64,000 nucleotides of DNA from Cyclobacteriaceae bacterium (GCA_050306095.1 JBNLGO010000004.1:14-64013); one strand, 5' to 3'. Positions 1 to 62,433 are shown, counted from the first letter of the stretch. The notes: generated from the letters alone by a model not told the origin. Translations and numbers: made by a program.

Positions 1-971
1 GCTTTTTGCCAATAACCTTCTTTATCTTTTTCTGATACCCAGATATCCCGCTTTCCGGAGCCTCCTGCCCTGTCAGAAACAAAATACAGCTTTCGTCCAT
101 CTGCAGACAAACTGGGTTGGGATTCCCATGATTTTGAATTGACATTAGGCCCCAGGTTTTTAGGCACCGTCCATTCAGAACCTACTTTAAAAGTTATATA
201 TAAATCACATCCACCATAGCTCTTTCTGCCCTCACAGGTTGTAAAAATTAAAATCTGACCATCAGCAGAAATGGTGCATGTGCCTTCGTTGAATTGGGAA
301 TTTATATTTTGTGATATGGGCGCAGGAAGAGACCATTTTCCATTTTCATCTTTGTGACAAACATAAAGATCTTCATCATCATAAAAAGAAACCCCGCGCC
401 TACCTGTAAAAAAAATTGTTTTTTGATCAGCAGTTAATACTGGAAAATATTGTAGAGGCAAAGCATTAACCTCTCTTGGCATTTGTTGAGGATCAAAATC
501 TACAGGTTTTTGAATGTTTTCAATGGCATAATTCGTTTTTTCTACCAGCACCTCTGATTCTTTGCGAATTTTATCGTCAATTTTATCCCCTTCCAGAAAA
601 GCGGTAATTAGATCCTTTGACTTCTGATATTCCCCTTGGTGATAATAGACATTCGCCAGTAAATACTTTGAATTTGGGTATTTATTGTTTTTATCCAGCC
701 TTACTACTTCTTCGAGGTGAATTTGTTGATGCTCTTTATCTTTTAAAATTTCAAAACAAAACGCCAGCTTATTATGTGCTTCAATAAAATTTTGATCTTT
801 TTGTAATGCCAAAAATAAAGTATTGATTCCCCTGGTAAAATCTCTTTGGTGAATGTAGGTACTCGCCTGTTCGTAATAATTTATTGCTTTTTTATTCTTA
901 GTAGAATAGCTGTTTTGGGCGTAAATAAAGGATGTGCTAAATAGAAGTAATATTATTAAAGTATATCTCAT
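1..971 (-). CDS. TPR plus PD40/TolB-like beta-propeller repeat protein, N-terminal 323 codons only (3' end lies beyond the window start). Proteins of this kind usually end in an OmpA-like domain.
   Basis: Manual minus-strand translation from ATG 971..969 gives a signal peptide (MRYTLIILLLFSTSFIYAQ) and TPR-like helices (ANVYYHQGEYQKS). PD40-type repeats follow (SQPSLSADGRKLYFVSDR..GKRDIWV). The frame is open to position 1, and the ORF is missing from the track because it is truncated. Confidence 0.6.
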   Translation of the reverse strand, partial: MRYTLIILLLFSTSFIYAQNSYSTKNKKAINYYEQASTYIHQRDFTRGINTLFLALQKDQNFIEAHNKLAFCFEILKDKEHQQIHLEEVVRLDKNNKYPNSKYLLANVYYHQGEYQKSKDLITAFLEGDKIDDKIRKESEVLVEKTNYAIENIQKPVDFDPQQMPREVNALPLQYFPVLTADQKTIFFTGRRGVSFYDDEDLYVCHKDENGKWSLPAPISQNINSQFNEGTCTISADGQILIFTTCEGRKSYGGCDLYITFKVGSEWTVPKNLGPNVNSKSWESQPSLSADGRKLYFVSDRAGGSGKRDIWVSEKDKEGYWQK

Positions 972-973
972 CA

Positions 974-1582
974 TTAAGGAATATCCATAAACTTATGAAT
1001 CTGTAACGATATTTCCCAATGAGGATTTTCTTTCACATGATTAATTATCAAAGGAGTTATTTCTTTAGCCTTCGACCATTCAGGTTGCAAATAAAGATGG
1101 GCATCACTATTCATTTCCCTTCGCAATTCTTCTGCCCACTTTAAATCTGAGGGATGATAGATGACCACTTTTAATTCATTGGCCTTTTCAAAATACACCT
1201 TTTCAGGCTTTTTAAATTTCTTAGGAGAGAAACATATCCAATCCCAATTTCCGGACAAAGGATAAGCACCTGATGTTTCAACGTGCGTCTTTTTACCTGA
1301 TGTCTGTAAAGCAGCAGTAAGTTGATCTAAATTATACATTAAGGGCTCACCTCCCGTAATGATGACAATTTCACTTTTATAATTATTGGCTACTGCTACT
1401 AACTCATCTGTCGTTAAGGATGGATAGCCTTCTGTCTGCCAGGAATCTTTCACATCACACCAAACGCACCCTACATCACACCCTGCTAAACGGATAAAAC
1501 TTGCCGCTTTACCCTGATGAAACCCTTCTCCCTGAATACTATAAAAGGATTCCATCAATGGAAGTTTACCCGTCTCCTCCAT
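974..1582 (-). CDS. queE: 7-carboxy-7-deazaguanine synthase (radical SAM, queuosine pathway)
   Basis: 202-aa ORF with SIQGEGFHQGKAASFIRLAGCDVGCVWCD (CX3CX2C cluster site) and ITGGEP, which is typical of QueE. Confidence 0.9.
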   Translation of the reverse strand: MEETGKLPLMESFYSIQGEGFHQGKAASFIRLAGCDVGCVWCDVKDSWQTEGYPSLTTDELVAVANNYKSEIVIITGGEPLMYNLDQLTAALQTSGKKTHVETSGAYPLSGNWDWICFSPKKFKKPEKVYFEKANELKVVIYHPSDLKWAEELRREMNSDAHLYLQPEWSKAKEITPLIINHVKENPHWEISLQIHKFMDIP

Positions 1583-1589
1583 AAAAGAA

Positions 1590-2462
1590 TTAGGCTTTTG
1601 TGGCTAATAGTGTATTATATAATAATGCGGCGATGGTCATCGGACCAACACCTCCCGGAACCGGAGTGATTTTAGATGCGATTTCTGAAACCTCATCAAA
1701 CTTCACATCTCCTTTTAGCCGGAAACCACTTTTCCTGGTGGCATCTGAAACACGGTGGATACCCACATCAATGATCACAGCATCTTTTTTGACCATATCT
1801 GCCGTCACAAATTCTGGTTGTCCTATGGCTACTACTAAAATATCTGCTTGCTTAGTAATAGAAGCCATATCTTTGGTTCTACTGTGCACTTGGGTTACTG
1901 TGCTATTTCCTGGTTTTGATTTTCTTGATAGAAGAATACTAATCGGGGTGCCAACAGTATGGCTTCTCCCCATAACTACCACATGTTTACCTTCTGTTTC
2001 AATGCCGTTTTTCTCTAATAATAGCATGACTCCCTTTGGAGTAGCTGGTACCATGCCTGGCAAGCCAAGCACCATATTACCCATATTCACAGGATGAAAG
2101 CCATCCACATCTTTTTTAGGATCGATAGCATCCACAACCTTTTGTTCATCAATATGCGATGGAAGTGGAACCTGAACAATAAAACCGTCTATTTCCGGAT
2201 TATTATTTAATTCATCTACTTTTTGAAGTAATTCCTCCTCTGAAGTTGAAGCTGGAAGATGCACTAAAGTTGACCCAAAACCAACTCGTTCGCAAGCCTT
2301 AACTTTTGCATTGACATAAGTCACGCTCGCACCATCATCACCTACTAATACCGCTGCCAGATGAGGAATTTTCCCACCTTGATTTTGAATTATTTTTACT
2401 TCTTCAGCCAGTTCATCCTGGATTTTGAGAGAAGTTGCTTTTCCATCTATTAATTCAGCCAT
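1590..2462 (-). CDS. folD: Bifunctional methylenetetrahydrofolate dehydrogenase / methenyl-THF cyclohydrolase
   Basis: 290 aa with FolD hallmarks LAAVLVGDDGASVTYV, VVVMGRSHTVG and PVPGGVGPMT. Confidence 0.95.
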   Translation of the reverse strand: MAELIDGKATSLKIQDELAEEVKIIQNQGGKIPHLAAVLVGDDGASVTYVNAKVKACERVGFGSTLVHLPASTSEEELLQKVDELNNNPEIDGFIVQVPLPSHIDEQKVVDAIDPKKDVDGFHPVNMGNMVLGLPGMVPATPKGVMLLLEKNGIETEGKHVVVMGRSHTVGTPISILLSRKSKPGNSTVTQVHSRTKDMASITKQADILVVAIGQPEFVTADMVKKDAVIIDVGIHRVSDATRKSGFRLKGDVKFDEVSEIASKITPVPGGVGPMTIAALLYNTLLATKA

Positions 2463-12742: not shown

Positions 12743-13015
12743 TTAGCCTCCAGATAAAGCTTGCATAATGTAAACCTGATCCTTTTCAGTCAATTGATCG
12801 GAAAGTGACGTGCGGTCGTGGATCAACTCATTGCCAATAAAGATATTTACATGCTTTCTTAAACTCCCATCTTCATTGATGATGTAATCTTTTATGCCTG
12901 GATATGATTGATCCAATTCGATCAACAATTCATTGACTGAAGAAGACTTGAAGTTTCCCGTGGTAAGTCCCGGAAAAAACCGTTTTAAGTTTTGAGTGAA
13001 GCTAACGCTCGGCAT
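12743..13015 (-). CDS. MoaD/ThiS-family ubiquitin-like beta-grasp protein with a C-terminal Gly-Gly
   Basis: About 90 aa ending ..VYIMQALSGG-stop, with the size and VNIFIGNE pattern of MoaD/ThiS. The track start at 13021 is a TTG, so I chose the ATG at 13015. The stop lies 12 nt upstream of the propeller gene start. Confidence 0.65.
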   Translation of the reverse strand: MPSVSFTQNLKRFFPGLTTGNFKSSSVNELLIELDQSYPGIKDYIINEDGSLRKHVNIFIGNELIHDRTSLSDQLTEKDQVYIMQALSGG

Positions 13016-13081
13016 AGTCAAATCAGGTAAACTAAATGAATTTACTGATTTGAAAAGATAGAGACAATATTCTGATGTATT

Positions 13082-14215
13082 TTAGAACAAATCGTATTCT
13101 AATAGACGGCACTCAATTTTACCATTGAAAAAAATCTTTTTACTCGAAGTTCGCAATCCCACTTTTTTAGCCGCATCAAAATTACCTGTGAAAATATAAC
13201 CGGTTTTTCCTGTACCCTTTTGCTTAAAAAAATCACCTATTTCCGTGTAATGTTGCTCCAGGTCTTTTTCAGATCCTAATCGCTCACCGTATTCAGGATT
13301 GACAATGATGATTCCTTTTCCATCAGGAATGAAAGTTTGCCGAAAATCACCTACCCTAAAATCTATCAGGCGATCAACTTTAGCCTTTTTGGCATTTTCT
13401 TTTGCTGCTTCTACAGCCCTGCGATTTATATCTGTGGCAATAATTTTAAAAGGTAATCGATCTATTGAACTTGATCGGTGTGTGGATTTTATGGTTTCAA
13501 AATCATTCCGATTATAGGAGCTTGTCTTTTGAAAACAATAGCTCCGGTGGATCTCTCCCGGAAATTTATTGATGGCCATCATGGCTGCTTCAATGGCAAG
13601 TGTACCGCTTCCACACATTGGATTGATAAAATGGGACTTCCTATCCCAATTCGTTGAATTAATGATCCCTGCTGCAAGGTTCTCCTGCATGGGTGCGCCT
13701 GTTGTCGTTTTTCGATAACCGTGCTTGGCAATAGTTTCGCCGGAAGTATCCAAGTAGATTTCAGCTTCCTTCTCAAACCAGTACAAAAATAAGACGATAT
13801 CATCTTTTCTAGGACCACTATCGGGACGCTGTCTATACAAATCCATAAACCGATCTGTAATAGCATCTTTTAAACGAAGGTTAGCGAATCGGGTATCTTT
13901 GATAAATTTATTCCTGACAAATGAATCAATGCTAATATATGATCCTTTATATATAAAATTTTCCCAAGGATATAATTTGGCTTTTTTATATAAATGATCA
14001 GGATGGGTAGCCCCGGTTTGAAACAATTTAAAAAGAACTCTATTCGCCGTTCGAAGCACAAAATTAAGCTTATAACAATCAACAATAGTTCCCTTTGTTT
14101 CTACAGATTTATCCTTTTTTTCAATGATTTCAAATCCATGGGATGATAGCTCATCACTTAGTTGACTGGACAATCCCGGACCACAGGTTACGAGTATTTT
14201 TTCTACTTGATTCAT
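13082..14215 (-). CDS. THUMP domain-containing class I SAM-dependent RNA methyltransferase (RlmL/RlmK-like, COG0116)
   Basis: 377 aa with an N-terminal THUMP-like region, a SAM-binding motif (FINPMCGSGTLAIEA) and a catalytic NPxYG-type motif (VNPEYGERL). Confidence 0.85.
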   Translation of the reverse strand: MNQVEKILVTCGPGLSSQLSDELSSHGFEIIEKKDKSVETKGTIVDCYKLNFVLRTANRVLFKLFQTGATHPDHLYKKAKLYPWENFIYKGSYISIDSFVRNKFIKDTRFANLRLKDAITDRFMDLYRQRPDSGPRKDDIVLFLYWFEKEAEIYLDTSGETIAKHGYRKTTTGAPMQENLAAGIINSTNWDRKSHFINPMCGSGTLAIEAAMMAINKFPGEIHRSYCFQKTSSYNRNDFETIKSTHRSSSIDRLPFKIIATDINRRAVEAAKENAKKAKVDRLIDFRVGDFRQTFIPDGKGIIIVNPEYGERLGSEKDLEQHYTEIGDFFKQKGTGKTGYIFTGNFDAAKKVGLRTSSKKIFFNGKIECRLLEYDLF

Positions 14216-14248
14216 AATAAAAAATGGCTGCCCTACTTGAGGACAGCC
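14216..14248 (-). terminator. Rho-independent terminator-like hairpin downstream of sdhB
   Basis: The minus-strand RNA reads GGCUGUCCUCAAGUAGGGCAGCC (8 bp with one mismatch) followed by AUUUUUUAUUAUG. A second 7-bp hairpin (GGACTAA/TTAGTCC) lies at 14271..14289. Confidence 0.5.
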
Positions 14249-14297
14249 GTTGAATTTACTATTTCTTTTTGGACTAAAATACTTAGTCCTGTTAATT

Positions 14298-15059
14298 CTA
14301 CTTTTCGTCAGTTAAAGAGGCAGAAAGGTATTCTCTATTTAGCCTTGCAATATGGCTTAAATCAATACCTTTTGGGCATTCAGAAGAACATGCTCCGGTA
14401 TTGGTACACGATCCAAAACCTTCGTCTTCCATTTGCTGTACCATGTTCAGTGCCCTTTGTTTTCTTTCCACCTGACCTTGTGGTAACAATGCCAATTGAG
14501 AAACTTTAGCAGCAACAAATAGCATTGCTGAAGCATTCTTACAAGCTGCCACACAAGCTCCACACCCAATACATGCTGCTGCATCCATTGCTTTGTCAGC
14601 ATCGGGCTTAGGAATAGGAATATTATTAGCATCTTGTACTGATCCTGTTCTTACAGAAACATACCCACCTGCCTGCATGATACGGTCAAATGAACTTCTG
14701 TCAACCACCAAATCCTTGATCACAGGAAATGATTTTGCTCTCCAAGGTTCAATGACAATGGTATCACCATCTTTAAAGCTCCTCATATGAAGCTGACAGG
14801 CAGTAATTAAGCTATCCGGACCATGAGGTCTACCATTGATATATAAGCTACACATTCCACAGATACCTTCACGGCAGTCATGATCGAAGTGAACAGGGTC
14901 TTCCCCTTTAGCTAATAAATCTTCATTAAGGATATCTAACATCTCCAGGAAGGAACTTCCCGGCGATACATTATCTATTTTATATGTTTTTAGCTCTCCT
15001 TTACTATTGGCGTCCTTTTGTCGCCAAACTTTAAGTGTATGTGAATGACCTTTTTCCAT
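14298..15059 (-). CDS. sdhB: Succinate dehydrogenase/fumarate reductase iron-sulfur subunit
   Basis: 253 aa with 2Fe-2S (CREGICGMC), 4Fe-4S ([11 protein letters not shown]) and 3Fe-4S ([12 protein letters not shown]) cysteine clusters. Confidence 0.95.
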
Positions 15060-15211
15060 TATTTATAGCTTCTTTGAGTCAGTTTAACATTTTCAAATTC
15101 AAGGATCTCCTTGTGTAGTTCGGCTTGCGTATTGTCGCCTTTATATTCCCATGCTGATACATAAGTGAATTTATCATCGTCACGCTTAGCCTCACCTTCT
15201 TCCGTTTGGGA
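15059..15211 (-). pseudogene. sdhA: Detached C-terminal 50 codons of sdhA, in the same frame as 15212..16993 beyond the internal TAA
   Basis: Manual translation gives [53 protein letters not shown]. This final TAA overlaps the sdhB ATG as TAATG. The whole span 15059..16993 is 645 codons, a normal length for this SdhA/FrdA type. Confidence 0.75.
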
Positions 15212-16993
15212 TTATTCCCTGAAGTGGCCACCACATGATTCATTGCGATTGAGCGCATCATCTACCATCAACTCTCCAAGTTCCATAAAGTCAGCTACTC
15301 TCAGCGCTTTCTCCAGGGTCATATTCAATTCTTCATTGGATCCTATCAACTTAACATCCTTCCAGTACTCCTCGCGAAGTTTTTTGATTTCTTCCTTTGC
15401 TTCCTTGAGTCCTTTTTCGTTCCTGGCCATTCCGCACTTATCCCACATGATCTTCCCTAATTCTTTATGGAATTGATCCACAGTCTTCGAACCATTCACG
15501 CTCAAGAGCTTATCTATTCTCTCTTTTACTGATTTTTCAGCTTCCGCAAAGGCTTCATGATCAGTTGTCAGTTTTGTAGATGGAACATTTGCTAGGTAGT
15601 TACCAATGGTATAAGGCAATACGAAATAACCATCTGCTAAACCTTGCATCAAAGCACTTGCTCCAAGTCGGTTTGCACCGTGATCTGAGAAGTTACACTC
15701 ACCAGCAGCAAACAATCCGGGAACGGTAGTTTGAAGATTGTAATCAACCCAAATACCGCCCATAGTATAGTGAACAGCAGGATAAATCATCATCGGAGTT
15801 TGATAAGGATCGTCAGCAGTAATCTTTTCATACATTTGGAAAAGGTTGCCATATTTCGCCTCGATTACATCGCGCCCATCTCTTTCAATAGCGTCCCTGA
15901 AATCCAGAAATACAGCTAATCCTGTTTCTCCTACTCCTCTTCCTTCGTCACAAACGTTCTTTGCATTTCTTGAAGCCACATCCCTTGGAACCAAGTTACC
16001 AAACGATGGATATATTCTTTCCAAATAATAATCCCGATCTTCTTCAGCTACGTCTCTTGGTCTGATTTCTCCTTTTCGAAGTTTATCAGATACAGCTTTT
16101 TCTTTTGGCACCCATACCCTTCCGTCATTTCTCAGCGATTCTGACATTAGTGTCAATTTCGACTGCTGATCACCATGAACAGGAATACATGTAGGGTGAA
16201 TTTGGGTATAGCAAGGGTTGGCAAAAAATGCTCCTTTTTTATATGCTCTCCAAGCAGCGGTAGCATTACAGCCCATTGCATTGGTAGAAAGGAAAAATAC
16301 GTTACCGTATCCTCCTGTAGCTAAAACTACTGCATGACCCGCATGAGATTCTATTTTACCAGTTACCATATTACGGGTAATGATCCCTTTTGCTTCGCCA
16401 TCAATAAGCACCACGTCCAACATTTCTGTTCTTGGATGCATGGTAACTTTACCAGCGGCTACTTGTCTGCTTAACGCAGAGTACGCACCTAATAAAAGCT
16501 GCTGCCCAGTTTGGCCTCTGGCATAAAATGTTCTTGATACCTGTGCACCACCAAATGAACGGTTGTCTAGTAATCCACCATACTCACGTGCAAAAGGAAC
16601 TCCCTGAGCTACGCATTGGTCAATGATATTAGAGCTTACTTCAGCCAGGCGGTAAACATTTGCCTCTCGGGCACGGTAGTCACCACCTTTGATCGTATCA
16701 TAAAATAGTCTATAAACGCTATCACCATCATTTTGATAGTTTTTAGCCGCGTTTATACCTCCCTGAGCCGCAATACTATGCGCCCTTCGGGGACTATCCT
16801 GATAGCAAAAAGATTTTACATTATAACCCATTTCTGCAAATGAGGCTGCAGCTGATGCTCCGGCCAGACCGGTACCTACCACTATAATGTCATATTTTCT
16901 TTTGTTGGCCGGGTTAACCAGCTTCACATTAAATTTATGTTTTGTCCATTTCTCGGCTAATGGGCCTTCTGGAATTTTTGAATCTAACTTCAT
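15212..16993 (-). CDS. sdhA: Succinate dehydrogenase/fumarate reductase flavoprotein subunit, as delimited by an apparently premature in-frame TAA
   Basis: 593 aa with an FAD-binding N-terminus ([15 protein letters not shown]) and [15 protein letters not shown] and GANRLGA motifs. The ORF ends at ..[13 protein letters not shown], although the homologous frame continues (see the next feature). Confidence 0.9.
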
Positions 16994-17008: not shown

Positions 17009-17761
17009 TTAATGAATGAAAAAGAAATAAATAGGTAGCCATGCAAACAGCGCTGAAATGATAATCGAAAACGCTGTTCCGACAAATTTTATGGCCGGGG
17101 TATAGGATTTATGGTTAATCCCCAGTGTCTGAAATGCTGACTGAAAACCATGTGACAAGTGGAAGGCCATGCCTATCATGGATAAAATATAAATAGCTAC
17201 AATCCACCATACTTTAAAAGACTCCGATACCACAAGGTAGAGGTCTTTATATACTCCTTCTTCATGTTTCAATTCTTCGGTAATTTCTACATCAATCAAG
17301 CTTGATTTTTCTACTTCACCCACTGCGCTTACTTCGTATTTGGCAAATGGCATTGCTCCCCAATGATACGTTGCCCAAAAACCTCGTAAATGAACCACTA
17401 GAAAAATAAGGATGATGGTTCCCAAAATTCCCATATTTCGGGATTGCCATACACTGGTAGATTGATTACTTCCTGATTTGTACTTTTCAGGTCGTGCTTT
17501 CTGGTTTTTAACCGTAAGAATTAACGATACAATTACATGCAATAAAATACTAGTGTAAAGAACGTAAGAAACCGTTTTAATCAATGGGTTGGTTGTCATA
17601 AAAACCGAGTATTGATTAAAAGCGTATCCCCCGTCATCCTTAAGCAATTGCAAATTACCGATAAGGTGTACCACCAGAAAGGTGATGAGAAACAGTCCGG
17701 TCAGAGCCATTAGGAACTTTTTTCCCAAGGGACCGGTAAACACTTTTTTTACCTGACTCAT
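17009..17761 (-). CDS. sdhC: Succinate dehydrogenase cytochrome b subunit (b558 family)
   Basis: 250 aa with five predicted TM helices carrying conserved His residues (VVHLIGN, VVHLRG, AFHLSHG). It lies immediately upstream of sdhA. Confidence 0.9.
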   Translation of the reverse strand: MSQVKKVFTGPLGKKFLMALTGLFLITFLVVHLIGNLQLLKDDGGYAFNQYSVFMTTNPLIKTVSYVLYTSILLHVIVSLILTVKNQKARPEKYKSGSNQSTSVWQSRNMGILGTIILIFLVVHLRGFWATYHWGAMPFAKYEVSAVGEVEKSSLIDVEITEELKHEEGVYKDLYLVVSESFKVWWIVAIYILSMIGMAFHLSHGFQSAFQTLGINHKSYTPAIKFVGTAFSIIISALFAWLPIYFFFIH

Positions 17762-17991
17762 TTTAATTTTGTTTACTTGTGATTTATTAATTGGCTTTCA
17801 AATTTAATTTCGGAATTGTTACCAAACAAAATTAGTTTATTATGTGTCTTAATTTTAATACATTCTAAATTGAATAAGTTGACGGTTGTCATTTTAAGTC
17901 TCTGTGACAACAACTTGTTCTTTTTTTGTGTATGATTATATAATAATTAATTAAAAAATTAATTTTAATATTGAGTCAACGTGTGGTCAAA

Positions 17992-20802
17992 ATGAAGCGG
18001 TTTATACTACCCATCTTACTTTTTTTACCCTTTTTAGTTCCCATCAAACTATTCGCTACCCATGTTCGGGCAGGAGAAGTGTTGGCTGAAAAGACATCGT
18101 GCCAATCAAACCGGTACAATATTACCGTAGTAATGTATGTAGATACAGAAGGGGTAGAGCCTGGTTTAGGAAGGATAGATTTTGGTGATGGCACATTTGA
18201 GGATTTGGATCTTCGTAGTTCCAATCCTGATTACCGGGAATTATTAGGAGATAATATCGAAAAAGTCATTTATATAAGAGACCACACTTTTCCGGGCCCA
18301 GGTCAATATAAAATTTCTTTTCGTGAGGAAAACAGAAACCAGGGGATTGTCAACATGGATAATTCTGTCAATACCGCCTTTTATGTGGAAACGGTTATTT
18401 TTATCGATCCAATTATAGGATGTGACAATAGCCCAATACTTTTAAACCCTCCAGTTGATAAAGCTTGTACAGGTGTTGCTTATTTTCATAATCCCGGTGC
18501 TGTAGATCTTGATGGTGATAGCCTATCTTATGAGTTCACTATTCCTAAAAAAGACAAAAACAATACAGTTGACAATTACACCTTTCCTGACAAATACGAT
18601 ATTGAAGTATATGGCACTCAAAACGAACAATTAACCGGGCCTGCTATCTTTACCATTGATCCCGTAACCGGAAATATCAAATGGGATGCTCCTGGTGGAC
18701 AAGGCGAATATAACTTTGCTTTTAAAGTGATTGAGTGGAAGAAATTAAATGGAAAATACCAACAAATAGGGTATGTAGTTAGGGATATGCAGGTGATTGT
18801 TTCAGAATGTGATAATAAACGCCCTGAACTAATTCTTCCTCCAGATACATGTGTAGTAGCAGGAAGTTTGCTGGAAGCTGAAATAATGGCAATAGACCCG
18901 GATACTAATGATGTAAAAATCAGCAGTTTCGGATTAGTCTATGAGTTCTCTAAGTTCCCAGCGGAATTAACTCCGAATCCTCCCATTTATCAGCCAAGCC
19001 CTGCAATCGCCAATTTTTCCTGGCAAACCACATGTGAAAGAATTAATAGCTCGCCCTATTTTGTTTATTTCAAGGCCATTGATACTTTAAATGGTGTTCA
19101 ATTGGCAACTTATGACACCTGGCTAATTAATGTAGTAGGACCTCCTCCGCAAGGGTTAACAACGGAACAGGGGACAGAGAATACAGTACGATTGACCTGG
19201 GATCAGTATGAGTGTAGCAATGCGGAAACGATTAAAATTTATCGAAAGGTCGATAATTATGATTACATGCCTGGCAACTGTGAATTAGGTATTCCTGAAA
19301 ATTCGGGATATGAATTAATCGCAGAAATTCCTGCCTCAAGAACATCTTATCTTGATATTGATGATTTGCTGTATGGCGTGAATTATTGCTATCGGTTAGT
19401 GGCTACATTTAATGCGCCAGAATACATGGAAAGTGTGGTTTCTGATGAGTCATGCGTCTTACTAGTTGAGGAGATTGACGCATTGATGACAAATGTGTCA
19501 ATTACAAACACTGATCCGGCAAATGGAGAGATCTTCATTCGTTGGACATCTCCATTTGGGGTAGATACTGCTATTAATCCGGAGCCATTTTATTATGAGC
19601 TTTATAGGGGAGAAGGTTTTGATACTCCTGGAATTACGCTAGTTACAAATGGACGAATAACAGATACCACATTTGTGGATACAGGGTTAAATACGGAAGA
19701 TCAGATTTATAATTATCATGTGGTGACCTATGATGCCAACTTCGAAGCCATTGATACTTCCGCTGTGGCGTCCTCTGTTCGACTGGAGCCAAATGCATTA
19801 AAAGGGGCAATTGAGTTGAACTGGGAAGCAAATACACCATGGACAAATTTTGCCCAGAGTTATCCTATGCATCTCATTTACCGTGACCATGTGTCGAGTG
19901 ATCCAAATGAACTAGTGTTAATTGATAGCACGAATGTTTTTGTAGATGGGCTGTTTTATATTGATGATGGCTCTGCTACAGGAGAAAGTATTCTGGATGA
20001 TAAAATTGAATATTGTTATTATATAACTACACGTGGGGCCTATGGTAACGACAAAATAACAGAACCTTTTGAAAACAATTCACAGGTTATTTGTGCTCAA
20101 CCAAATGATTCGATTCCTCCTTGCGCTCCCCAGGAATTTTTGATCGTCAATTCTGAATTAAATGGTAACTGCGAAAATATCAAACAGGAACTATGTGACT
20201 TTGACAATTTTGAAAATGTACTTTCCTGGAGCTATGATCTGCAAGATGAATGCGGCTTGGATGTACGTGGGTTTAAAGTATATTTTTCAGAATCAGGGTT
20301 AGAAAAGGATTTTGTTGAATTAGCTCATGTAAGGGATACGTTTTTTGTTCATACAGATATTCCTTCCTATAAAGGCTGCTACCGTATCACAGCAGTTGAC
20401 AGGTCAGGAAATGAAAGTGAGCCGACAGAAATTATGTGCAATGATAATTGTCCAAACTATTATCTGCCAAATGTTTTCACTCCAAATGATGACAGCTTCA
20501 ACGACGTATTCCAGGCATTTGATGATTATCCATCTGACCAGGAAAATCCTTACCAATATTGCCCGAGGTTTGTAGAATCAGTAAAGTTTGAAGTATACAA
20601 TCGATGGGGACAATTGGTTTATGATTTCGATTCCGGTGGTGAGAATTCAATTTTTATTGAGTGGGATGGAGTGGGTTCTAATGGCAAACCAGTAGCTTCC
20701 GGAGTGTATTATTATATTGCTTATGTAACCTTTGACATGCTGGACCCAGACAGGAAGGTAGGTGAATATAAAGGCTGGATCAAAATTGAAAGAGGAAACT
20801 AA
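17992..20802 (+). CDS. Large secreted adhesin-like protein with a T9SS type-B sorting domain (gliding motility-associated C-terminal domain, CHU_C)
   Basis: The C-terminus (YYLPNVFTPNDDSFNDVF ... GVYYYI ... GWIKI) is the type-B T9SS sorting signature. A signal peptide (MKRFILPILLFLPFLVPIKLFA) begins at ATG 17992, whereas the track start at 17971 is a TTG. Confidence 0.85.
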   Translation: MKRFILPILLFLPFLVPIKLFATHVRAGEVLAEKTSCQSNRYNITVVMYVDTEGVEPGLGRIDFGDGTFEDLDLRSSNPDYRELLGDNIEKVIYIRDHTFPGPGQYKISFREENRNQGIVNMDNSVNTAFYVETVIFIDPIIGCDNSPILLNPPVDKACTGVAYFHNPGAVDLDGDSLSYEFTIPKKDKNNTVDNYTFPDKYDIEVYGTQNEQLTGPAIFTIDPVTGNIKWDAPGGQGEYNFAFKVIEWKKLNGKYQQIGYVVRDMQVIVSECDNKRPELILPPDTCVVAGSLLEAEIMAIDPDTNDVKISSFGLVYEFSKFPAELTPNPPIYQPSPAIANFSWQTTCERINSSPYFVYFKAIDTLNGVQLATYDTWLINVVGPPPQGLTTEQGTENTVRLTWDQYECSNAETIKIYRKVDNYDYMPGNCELGIPENSGYELIAEIPASRTSYLDIDDLLYGVNYCYRLVATFNAPEYMESVVSDESCVLLVEEIDALMTNVSITNTDPANGEIFIRWTSPFGVDTAINPEPFYYELYRGEGFDTPGITLVTNGRITDTTFVDTGLNTEDQIYNYHVVTYDANFEAIDTSAVASSVRLEPNALKGAIELNWEANTPWTNFAQSYPMHLIYRDHVSSDPNELVLIDSTNVFVDGLFYIDDGSATGESILDDKIEYCYYITTRGAYGNDKITEPFENNSQVICAQPNDSIPPCAPQEFLIVNSELNGNCENIKQELCDFDNFENVLSWSYDLQDECGLDVRGFKVYFSESGLEKDFVELAHVRDTFFVHTDIPSYKGCYRITAVDRSGNESEPTEIMCNDNCPNYYLPNVFTPNDDSFNDVFQAFDDYPSDQENPYQYCPRFVESVKFEVYNRWGQLVYDFDSGGENSIFIEWDGVGSNGKPVASGVYYYIAYVTFDMLDPDRKVGEYKGWIKIERGN

Positions 20803-60865: not shown

Positions 60866-62260
60866 ATGGCATCAAAATACGATTTAATAGTAATTGGTAG
60901 TGGCCCGGGAGGCTACGTAGCAGCTATAAGAGCAGCTCAATTAGGCATGAATGTAGGCGTTGTAGAAAAAGCTGAAATAGGCGGTATTTGTCTCAATTGG
61001 GGATGTATACCTACCAAAGCTTTATTAAAAAGCGCGCAGGTATTTGAATATATCCAACATGCGAAGGATTACGGCATTGATGTAAAAGATGCAACAGCAG
61101 ATTTTTCAGCCATGATCAAGCGAAGCAGAGATGTGGCTGCTGGAATGAGCAAAGGAGTTCAATTTCTTTTTAAGAAGAATAAAATTGAAATGATCAATGG
61201 GTTTGGGAAATTGGTAAAAGCTAAGACAGTAGAAGTTACTGATGATGCTGGTAAAACATCCCAAATTCAAGCAGACAATATCATCCTGGCAACAGGAGGA
61301 AGATCGAGGGAATTACCTAACCTACCTATCGATGGCAAAAAGATCATTGGCTATCGACAAGCTATGTCTCTTGACAAGCAGCCTAAGAAAATGGTGATAG
61401 TTGGTTCTGGAGCTATAGGTGTAGAATTCGCATATTTCTATCATTCGATTGGAACTGAAGTGACGATTGTAGAATTTATGCCAAAGGTAGTTCCGGTAGA
61501 AGATGATGATGTTTCAAAACAACTGGAAAGGAACTTCAAAAAAGCAGGCATGACAGTTATGACCAGTTCGGAGGTGACAAATGTAGACACCAAGGGTAAA
61601 GGCTGCAAAGTAACTGTAAAAACACAAAAAGGCGAAGAAATAATCGATTGTGACATTGTACTTTCTGCAGTAGGTGTAAGTACAAACATTGAAGGGCTTG
61701 GCCTGGAAGATGTAGGAGTAGCAACCGATAAAGGCAAAGTATTGGTAGATGATTATTATAAAACCAATATGCCTGGAATATATGCAATAGGCGATATCGT
61801 GAAAGGTCCTGCTCTGGCACACGTAGCTTCTGCTGAAGGGATTATATGCGTGGAGAAAATGGCCGGACAAAATCCAGAGCCTTTAGATTACAATAACATA
61901 CCAGGGTGTACCTATTGCAGTCCTGAAATTGCTTCTGTAGGATACACAGAAAAAGCTGCTAAAGAAGCAGGGTATGATATCAAAGTGGGTAAATTCCCAT
62001 TCTCAGCCAGCGGAAAAGCTAAAGCTGCCGGCGCATCAGATGGGTTTGTAAAAGTAATTTTTGACGCAAAATATGGTGAATGGCTAGGCGCTCATATGAT
62101 TGGCGCAAATGTGACTGAAATGATTGCCGAGGTAGTTGCTGCAAGAAAGCTTGAAACTACCGGACATGAAATTATTAAAACAGTTCACCCTCACCCAACC
62201 ATGTCAGAAGCTATAATGGAAGCGGCTGCAGATGCATATGGTGAGGTAATCCATTTATAA
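60866..62260 (+). CDS. lpdA: Dihydrolipoyl dehydrogenase (E3)
   Basis: 464 aa with GSGPGGYVAAIRAAQLG, the redox-active GGICLNWGCIPTK, GSGAIGVEFA and a C-terminal HPHPT(M)SE motif. Confidence 0.95.
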   Translation: MASKYDLIVIGSGPGGYVAAIRAAQLGMNVGVVEKAEIGGICLNWGCIPTKALLKSAQVFEYIQHAKDYGIDVKDATADFSAMIKRSRDVAAGMSKGVQFLFKKNKIEMINGFGKLVKAKTVEVTDDAGKTSQIQADNIILATGGRSRELPNLPIDGKKIIGYRQAMSLDKQPKKMVIVGSGAIGVEFAYFYHSIGTEVTIVEFMPKVVPVEDDDVSKQLERNFKKAGMTVMTSSEVTNVDTKGKGCKVTVKTQKGEEIIDCDIVLSAVGVSTNIEGLGLEDVGVATDKGKVLVDDYYKTNMPGIYAIGDIVKGPALAHVASAEGIICVEKMAGQNPEPLDYNNIPGCTYCSPEIASVGYTEKAAKEAGYDIKVGKFPFSASGKAKAAGASDGFVKVIFDAKYGEWLGAHMIGANVTEMIAEVVAARKLETTGHEIIKTVHPHPTMSEAIMEAAADAYGEVIHL

Positions 62261-62284
62261 AATAGAATTACATACCAATATTTT

Positions 62285-62310
62285 AAAACCCCGTTTATCG
62301 GGGTTTTTTT
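62285..62310 (+). terminator. Rho-independent terminator of lpdA
   Basis: AAAACCCCG-TTTAT-CGGGGTTTT is followed by a T-run, 25 nt after the stop codon. Confidence 0.85.
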
Positions 62311-62391
62311 ATGCCTTTTTGCCAATAATCGCAATGTAATTTTCACAGAAAGATTAAATTTTCTTCCCAAGAGGAATGTTGGCATAATATT

Positions 62392-62399
62392 TATCTTTG
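62392..62399 (+). promoter_or_regulatory. Bacteroidota-type -7 promoter element (TAnnTTTG)
   Basis: TATCTTTG lies 35 nt upstream of the ATG at 62434. I found no well-spaced -33 TTG. Confidence 0.3.
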
Positions 62400-62433
62400 T
62401 TAAAGCTCTTTGGGGGAATTAATTTAAAAGACA

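Follow-up and report, generated by a model that had tools for sequence, protein, structure and literature searches.

The sdhA gene of a Cyclobacteriaceae bacterium is interrupted by an in-frame TAA that occupies the place of an invariant glutamate codon, and the codons following this stop specify the normal C-terminus of the succinate dehydrogenase flavoprotein. No other sign of decay is present in the gene. The feature is not a new decoding or regulatory mechanism. It is of an ordinary, known kind: the otherwise intact sdhA is a young pseudogene, or else the assembly is wrong at one base. The DNA analysed here, referred to as the window, is a stretch of 64,000 nucleotides (GCA_050306095.1, JBNLGO010000004.1:14-64013).

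Organization of the sdhCAB operon

The affected gene lies between sdhC and sdhB. All three genes are located on the minus strand in the order sdhC, sdhA, sdhB, which is also the order found in relatives. The features are as follows.

17009..17761, minus strand: sdhC, single cytochrome b558-type membrane anchor, 250 aa (TIGR02046 profile match)
15212..16993, minus strand: 5' ORF of sdhA, 593 codons and the premature TAA (ORF list, family profiles)
15212..15214, minus strand: premature TAA replacing the invariant Glu-594 codon (GAA) (homologue comparison)
15062..15211, minus strand: 50 in-frame sense codons, the normal SdhA C-terminus, ending ..TQRSYK (homology)
15057..15061, minus strand: TAATG junction, formed by the natural stop of sdhA (15061-15059) and, sharing one base with it, the start of sdhB (15059-15057)
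14298..15059, minus strand: sdhB, iron-sulfur subunit, 253 aa, intact (NF005746, PF13085, Fer4)

The sdhC product is matched by NCBIfam TIGR02046 (sdhC_b558_fam) with 157.6 bits against a cutoff of 96, and the gene holds the same position in related loci. The sdhB product scores 433.6 bits with NCBIfam NF005746 and contains both PF13085 and Fer4 domains. The 593-codon ORF of sdhA encodes the FAD-binding, capping and helical domains together with the first 65% of the C-terminal domain, PF00890 being matched over positions 1-414 of 414. Its translation also carries the histidine of what we take, from E. coli SdhA/FrdA, to be the covalent-FAD motif (..R-x-H-S-x-x-A-x-G-G..).

These matches identify sdhCAB as the operon for a succinate:menaquinone oxidoreductase of type B, with a single dihaem anchor, in a Cytophagales bacterium. 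A structurally described counterpart is the Chloroflexus aurantiacus complex, CaSDH (PDB 9LAY). Its three subunits correspond to those encoded here, SdhC being a dihaem protein with five helices, and its SdhA is built of four domains including a C-terminal domain (PMC12663545). The window resembles it in having sdhC, sdhA and sdhB with a single b558-type anchor.

The premature stop codon and its reading frame

Translation of sdhA starts with the ATG at 16993 and proceeds through 593 codons to the TAA at 15214..15212, which directly follows ..GGHFRE. Positions 15220..15209 of the minus strand read AGG GAA TAA TCC (15220-15218, 15217-15215, 15214-15212 and 15211-15209, respectively). Past the TAA, exactly 50 sense codons follow in the same frame before a second TAA at 15061-15059; the final A of this TAA also begins the sdhB ATG, which gives TAATG. 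Re-reading and translation reproduced every coordinate of the original prediction, namely the stop at 15212..15214, the 50 codons, the second TAA at 15059..15061 and the TAATG. An uninterrupted ORF over the whole SdhA model, including a complete PF02910 domain, is absent; the remainder is found in frame beyond the TAA.

A 593-aa protein 100% identical to the sdhA product of the window is present in the public protein collection (P0004, NCBI, from a contig of 65,831 bp). The TAA therefore belongs to the deposited contig itself and did not arise in extraction of the window.

The sequence beyond the stop is the SdhA C-terminus

When compared alone with PDB sequences, the 51-residue tail matches residues 607-657 of 9lay_A (E = 5.4e-13), the extreme end of Chloroflexus aurantiacus SdhA. 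A 158-residue query spanning the stop aligns gap-free to 9lay_A residues 502-657, which pair with the C-terminal 156 residues of the conceptual SdhA. The match is far beyond chance, and it bears out the earlier recognition of the tail as an SdhA/FrdA C-terminus.

Family profiles give the same picture. Inclusion of the tail extends the match to PF02910 (Succ_DH_flav_C) from positions 1-84 of 130 (100.4 bits) to 1-130 of 130 (131.9 bits). With NF005749, the truncated product scores 1123.5 bits (positions 5-590 of 641) and the read-through product 1202.2 bits, a gain of 78.7 bits, while coverage rises from 590/641 to 641/641 positions. With TIGR01811 (sdhA_Bsu), the scores are 925.5 and 989.9 bits and coverage rises from 553/603 to 603/603. 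Truncated and read-through products alike score above the respective cutoffs of 866 and 541.

The conceptual product of 644 aa, whose alignment to orthologues had been proposed as a check, thus matches the models of the CaSDH/NF005749 family end to end. It differs from the members of this family in that its frame is cut by a TAA at codon 594, which is the case in 0 of 119 full-length homologues. Orthologues ending naturally at ..GGHFRE were not encountered: in all 82 related loci, GGHFRx is followed by 49-51 residues. The arginine, serine and tyrosine of the terminal ..TQRSYK are each 98% conserved in the alignment of 119 proteins.

The stop replaces an invariant glutamate

Two sets of homologues were used to determine which residue the stop replaces. 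The protein set comprises the best-scoring 120 clusters, 119 of which are essentially full length (617-649 aa, 105 of them exactly 644); the sole short member is the window's own product. In the alignment of the 119 full-length proteins, the column of the stop is 100% Glu. The genomic set consists of 80 related loci kept from a scan of 185,579 species genomes, and the aligned residue is again Glu in every one of them (56 GAA, 24 GAG).

The seven closest loci that were checked all read ..AGG/AGA GAA/GAG GAA.. at the stop site. L082 and L083, with 91% protein identity to the window, read TTCAGGGAA GAA TCCCAGACA, and L085, with 93% protein identity, reads TTCAGGGAG GAA TCCCAAACC. The corresponding sequence of the window is TTCAGGGAA TAA TCCCAAACG. 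Since the closest relatives carry GAA, in the context AGG GAA GAA TCC, the lesion amounts to one G>T transversion (C>A at 15214 on the plus strand). The mutated base is the minus-strand T at 15214, an A on the plus strand, where the ancestral base is C. The proposal that the stop sits on an expected Glu codon through a single GAA to TAA change is in full agreement with both sets of homologues.

The substitution is located inside a GAA-GAA-T direct repeat and converts it to GAA-TAA-T. This outcome would fit transient primer-template misalignment, which could operate in an in-vivo mutation and in an amplification artefact alike.

The lesion is not accompanied by other decay

The sdhA sequences of the window, L085 and L083 are 1932 nt each and colinear without any indel. 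Relative to L083 and L085, pN is 0.044-0.059 upstream of the stop and 0.066-0.070 in the tail; pS in the tail is 0.41-0.75, synonymous sites being saturated at pS of about 0.8. In a three-taxon comparison of the tail, 3 amino-acid changes fall on the branch of the window, and 4 and 4 on those of the two intact relatives.

Residues of the window were also compared with those of the 119 homologues column by column. None of the 50 tail residues is unseen in the same column of the homologues, and the same holds for all but one of the 593 upstream residues. The stop aside, the window sdhA carries the conserved residue at every column of the gene with an invariance of 98% or more. The in-frame codon-usage score of the tail is 0.31, as compared with 0.27 +/- 0.07 for window genes and -0.88 for the other frames. 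No extra stops, frameshifts or relaxed dN were detected in the window sdhA in comparison with L083 and L085.

Normal constraint and lack of foreign residues in the tail indicate that selection kept it until very recently. On the evidence of these comparisons, the stop would be either extremely recent or absent from the organism altogether. Like young bacterial nonsense pseudogenes, the window sdhA has a single-base in-frame stop at a conserved sense codon with homologous sequence continuing behind it. In contrast to them, it contains no second lesion, no relaxed substitution and no indel. The lesion is thus at the youngest possible stage of a pseudogene, and a sequence error looks the same.

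Real allele or sequence error

We consider it nearly an even chance, though not quite, that the TAA is a very young, real nonsense (null) allele of sdhA. Should the base be real in the DNA of the organism, loss of function would be likely, and coupling to sdhB would probably be lost as well. Selection should act strongly against null alleles in so central a respiratory enzyme, and those of complex II should be rare.

The main alternative is an error of sequencing, amplification, polishing or consensus calling, in which case sdhA of the organism is intact with GAA, and TAA exists in the deposited contig only. We regard such an error as a serious possibility, somewhat short of even. Over 644 codons, a lone substitution is all that is abnormal in the gene, exactly as a consensus error would look, and the normal constraint on the tail points the same way. 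Further, the contig is unannotated and its proteins lack nr entries, which suggests a metagenome-assembled genome, a type of assembly in which consensus errors and captured minority alleles occur. None of seven other window proteins that were looked up has a name or accession in the protein collection, nor has P0004. G>T also belongs to the substitution class associated with oxidative damage of template DNA, which counts for an error.

Several observations speak against an error. The 64 kb contain no frameshift and no other broken gene, implying a low error rate of the contig. The window is densely coding, and ten of ten neighbouring genes checked have full-length domain matches; such a clean neighbourhood is not what a contig full of errors would show. 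By a rough estimate, no more than a few percent of random erroneous substitutions yield a stop codon. No systematic miscalling of GANTC to TANTC is evident: the ancestral GAATC is a GANTC site, and GANTC and TANTC are both mildly under-represented in the window, which is uninformative on miscalling.

Independent sequence of the same species was found in one source. Look-ups of sdhB and of an RlmL-like gene both led to the same Logan contig, L001 (run SRR36185838), which is 1982 bp long, 99.85% identical to the window, and encodes an identical sdhB. It differs from the window at 3 positions, all of them third-position synonymous, and ends 1 nt before sdhB without reaching the stop site. A second genotype of the species therefore exists, and purifying selection is visible in these differences. 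That the species lives as a natural population under such selection counts for a real allele. Strain-level variation of this kind (3 SNPs in 1982 bp) makes consensus mix-ups possible and is to that extent a point in favour of an error. Cluster-mates of the sdhB product (P0242-P0244) were considered as closer strains and rejected, being only 92-94% identical.

Other searches for the stop site in the same species were negative. In JGI metagenomes, an exact search with 56 nt, the mutated base set to N, had 0 matches, and exact look-ups of the 593-aa product, of P0004 and of the sdhC product yielded no record. Protein queries of 81 aa and 127 aa from around the stop retrieved no same-species fragment; their best hits, which extend over most of the query, are 89% and 82% identical, and the 127-aa search is a weak negative, as it did not list even P0004. 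Two presumed fragments of 78 and 72 aa, each beginning with Met and closing with ..HFRE, gave no match either.

Read-through, gene fission and codon reassignment

Bacterial programmed recoding includes insertion of selenocysteine at UGA and pyrrolysine at UAG, as well as leaky UGA of the kind found in the A1 gene of phage Q-beta. The window sdhA shares with such systems a conserved coding sequence after an in-frame stop. A tolerated or programmed read-through, in which the TAA is decoded by a near-cognate or suppressor tRNA, would keep both full-length SdhA and the coupling to sdhB. The tail is indeed perfectly preserved in frame up to the conserved TAATG and its codon score is gene-like, but both observations are equally expected of a very recent lesion.

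The context of the stop argues against read-through. Read-through is lowest at UAA, and termination in bacteria is expected to be strongest at UAAU (PMC5289835). Of 48 window ORFs, none shorter than 100 codons, that were taken as genes, 34 end in TAA and 17 of these in TAA-T. The latter is the same tetranucleotide as the sdhA stop and terminates more of these genes than any other. Unlike programmed recoding sites, the stop thus combines a UAA in the strongest termination context with conservation in no relative: a stop at this site occurs in 0 of 80 loci and in 0 of 119 proteins. A degenerate DNA pattern that requires TAA, TAG, TGA or TGG at the site, CGGHFR(E/D)-[TAA/TAG/TGA/TGG]-..T.EGEA, had 0 matches in JGI metagenome contigs.

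A recoding element or matching tRNA was not seen in the 64-kb window. A 141-nt segment that includes the stop and extends beyond it has no significant RNA structure (z = -1.5; 14 of 200 shuffles fold at least as well), and neither tRNA genes nor Rfam matches are located within the window. Other window genes have no convincing coding extension past their TAA. Their long open extensions measure 41 to 112 codons. The longest, 112 codons after the RlmL-like gene, was rejected as read-through, for it is the next gene, encoding a ThiS-family protein in the same frame. The remaining ones have codon scores of 0.09-0.23, below the 0.31 of the sdhA tail.

The original prediction had left a tolerated stop open as one of three explanations. 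With the UAA-U context, the lack of any relative with a stop and the lack of significant downstream structure, this option is disfavoured and we judge it very improbable. This low probability covers the reading of a real, fixed TAA at which efficient read-through of UAA-U still yields full-length SdhA, for example by means of an ochre-suppressing tRNA encoded elsewhere in the genome. If that were true, a free-living Bacteroidota bacterium would depend on natural suppression of UAA for an enzyme central to its respiration.

Natural fission of the gene, in which the 593-aa protein would combine with a C-terminal peptide of 50 aa, initiated on its own, to give a working flavoprotein, is exceedingly unlikely. 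The intact reading frame of the tail is all that speaks for it. In-frame ATG, GTG and TTG are all missing from the tail, whose only start-like codons are ATC (codon 36) and CTG (codon 44), with TAA as codon 0. No examined homologue is split at the site of the stop. Since the tail lacks an in-frame start codon, a separately translated C-terminal piece is effectively refuted.

Reassignment of TAA to sense in this organism, for which no point was found and which had already been called unlikely, is scarcely conceivable, as TAA ends 34 of the 48 window ORFs at normal protein lengths (for example, the RlmL-like protein has 377 aa as in relatives) and also forms the natural end of sdhA.

The TAATG junction and coupling to sdhB

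The TAATG junction noticed at the outset is conserved in the closest relatives: it also occurs in L002-L005, L082, L083 and L085. If the premature stop is real, the sdhB start would lie 150 untranslated bases downstream of it and would not be reached by ribosomes terminating on TAATG. The expectation that the stop uncouples sdhB translation needs some softening. Presence of the overlap in the closest relatives is in its favour, but in the family as a whole the overlap is found in just 14 of 82 related loci, which indicates that sdhB initiation is not generally dependent on coupling.

Predicted consequences for SdhA

Under the reading that the base is real, a single G>T transversion in GAA-GAA-T would have turned the invariant Glu-594 codon into TAA-T, and ribosomes would terminate after residue 593. 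The product would lack the last 51 residues, which amount to 35% of the C-terminal domain and include the conserved ..R-S-Y end. In terms of PF02910, the truncation removes positions 85-130.

The role of the tail can be approached through eukaryotic SDHA/Sdh1, the flavinylation and assembly of which reportedly depend on the C-terminal tail (Kim et al. 2012, JBC 287:40670, going by its title). The window resembles eukaryotic tail mutants, among them human R662C (PMC9953674), in that the conserved extreme C-terminus is affected (..TQRSYK as compared with human ..AIRSY), the ..RSY ends being equivalent as judged by inspection. It differs from them in that the enzyme is of bacterial type B and menaquinone-linked, and the truncation, at 51 residues, is much larger. 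R662 of human SDHA is reported to influence FAD binding, the salt bridge to the assembly factor SDHAF2 and stability of the complex (PMC9953674). In CaSDH, the N-helix embraces the C-terminal domain, which contributes to the trimer interface (PMC12663545). By analogy with these tail roles and domain contacts, the truncated SdhA most likely could not mature or assemble, and a truncation of 51 residues would most likely be a null allele.

Significance

As it stands, the feature is of little biological weight. We advise annotation of sdhA as a gene with an internal stop (pseudo or low-quality) rather than as a short SdhA variant. If the base is wrong, the case reduces to a single bad base in a public contig, from which gene callers emit a truncated 593-aa SdhA, as has already happened with P0004. 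If the base is real, a core gene would have lost its function through a fresh mutation, a case of modest interest, and the strain or population carrying it would be without working complex II, its TCA cycle and menaquinone link being broken.

Sequence around the substitution

On the minus strand, positions 15209..15220 ancestrally carried a GAA-GAA-T direct repeat that contains the G>T site of sdhA. The outcome, GAA-TAA-T, fits what transient primer-template misalignment would be expected to produce. At the changed codon, the ancestral GAATC is also a GANTC site. Since both GANTC (136 observed vs 215 expected) and TANTC are mildly depleted, their counts across the window give no sign of systematic miscalling at GANTC.

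Other open frames

Frames of 41-53 open codons, with codon scores of 0.09-0.23, also follow the TAA of three other genes in the window:

60866..62419, plus strand, region of a gene with open codons past its TAA
33019..32896, minus strand, open codons past the gene's TAA
24019..23897, minus strand, open codons past the gene's TAA

A conserved junction was found at the end of none of the three, and these extensions were taken as chance or antisense-of-gene effects. A longer frame lies 3' of an RlmL-like gene:

13082..14215, minus strand, RlmL-like methyltransferase gene
12743..13021, minus strand, gene of a small ThiS-family protein with a C-terminal GG

Here 112 codons are open in the same frame (region 12743..14215, minus strand). 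They were rejected as an extension of the RlmL-like gene: the neighbouring ThiS-family gene shares its frame by chance, and the RlmL-like protein has the same length (377 aa) as in relatives.

Two mechanical ORFs overlap the sdhA tail in frames other than that of sdhA:

15079..15261, minus strand, ORF of 60 aa
15165..15476, plus strand, ORF of 103 aa

Because both lie wholly within conserved sdhA coding sequence, they were taken as spurious. The start of the 60-aa ORF, 15261, is also the end coordinate of the feature in the original prediction (15059-15261).

SdhA fragments in protein searches

Many matches to the 81-aa and 127-aa queries are C-terminal pieces of SdhA with a length of precisely 123 or 129 aa, which begin at Met residues of one 11-residue stretch. 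These pieces resemble products of gene prediction at contig edges, where an internal Met had to serve as the start; some sit on contigs >100 kb. Neither the 593-aa protein identical to the truncated product (P0004) nor any full-length SdhA is among the matches listed for the 127-aa query, and this search therefore favours short fragments.

Relatives of the window

Upstream of the sdh operon, a gene is found in divergent orientation:

17971..20802, plus strand, 943-aa protein with C-terminal CHU_C type IX secretion signal domain

The closest relatives belong to Cytophagales, Roseivirgaceae and Cyclobacteriaceae; taken with the CHU_C-domain protein, they assign the window to Bacteroidota. Among the sequences searched, the only contig of the same species was L001 (Logan, run SRR36185838), whose positions 1..1982 correspond to window 15060..13079. 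It starts 1 nt ahead of the sdhB ATG and stops 3 nt beyond the RlmL-like gene stop, so that both ends fall at gene borders. L001 differs from the window at three positions (14949, 13151 and 13112); all three differences are third-position synonymous, and the comparison of the two sequences points to the existence of a second genotype within the species.
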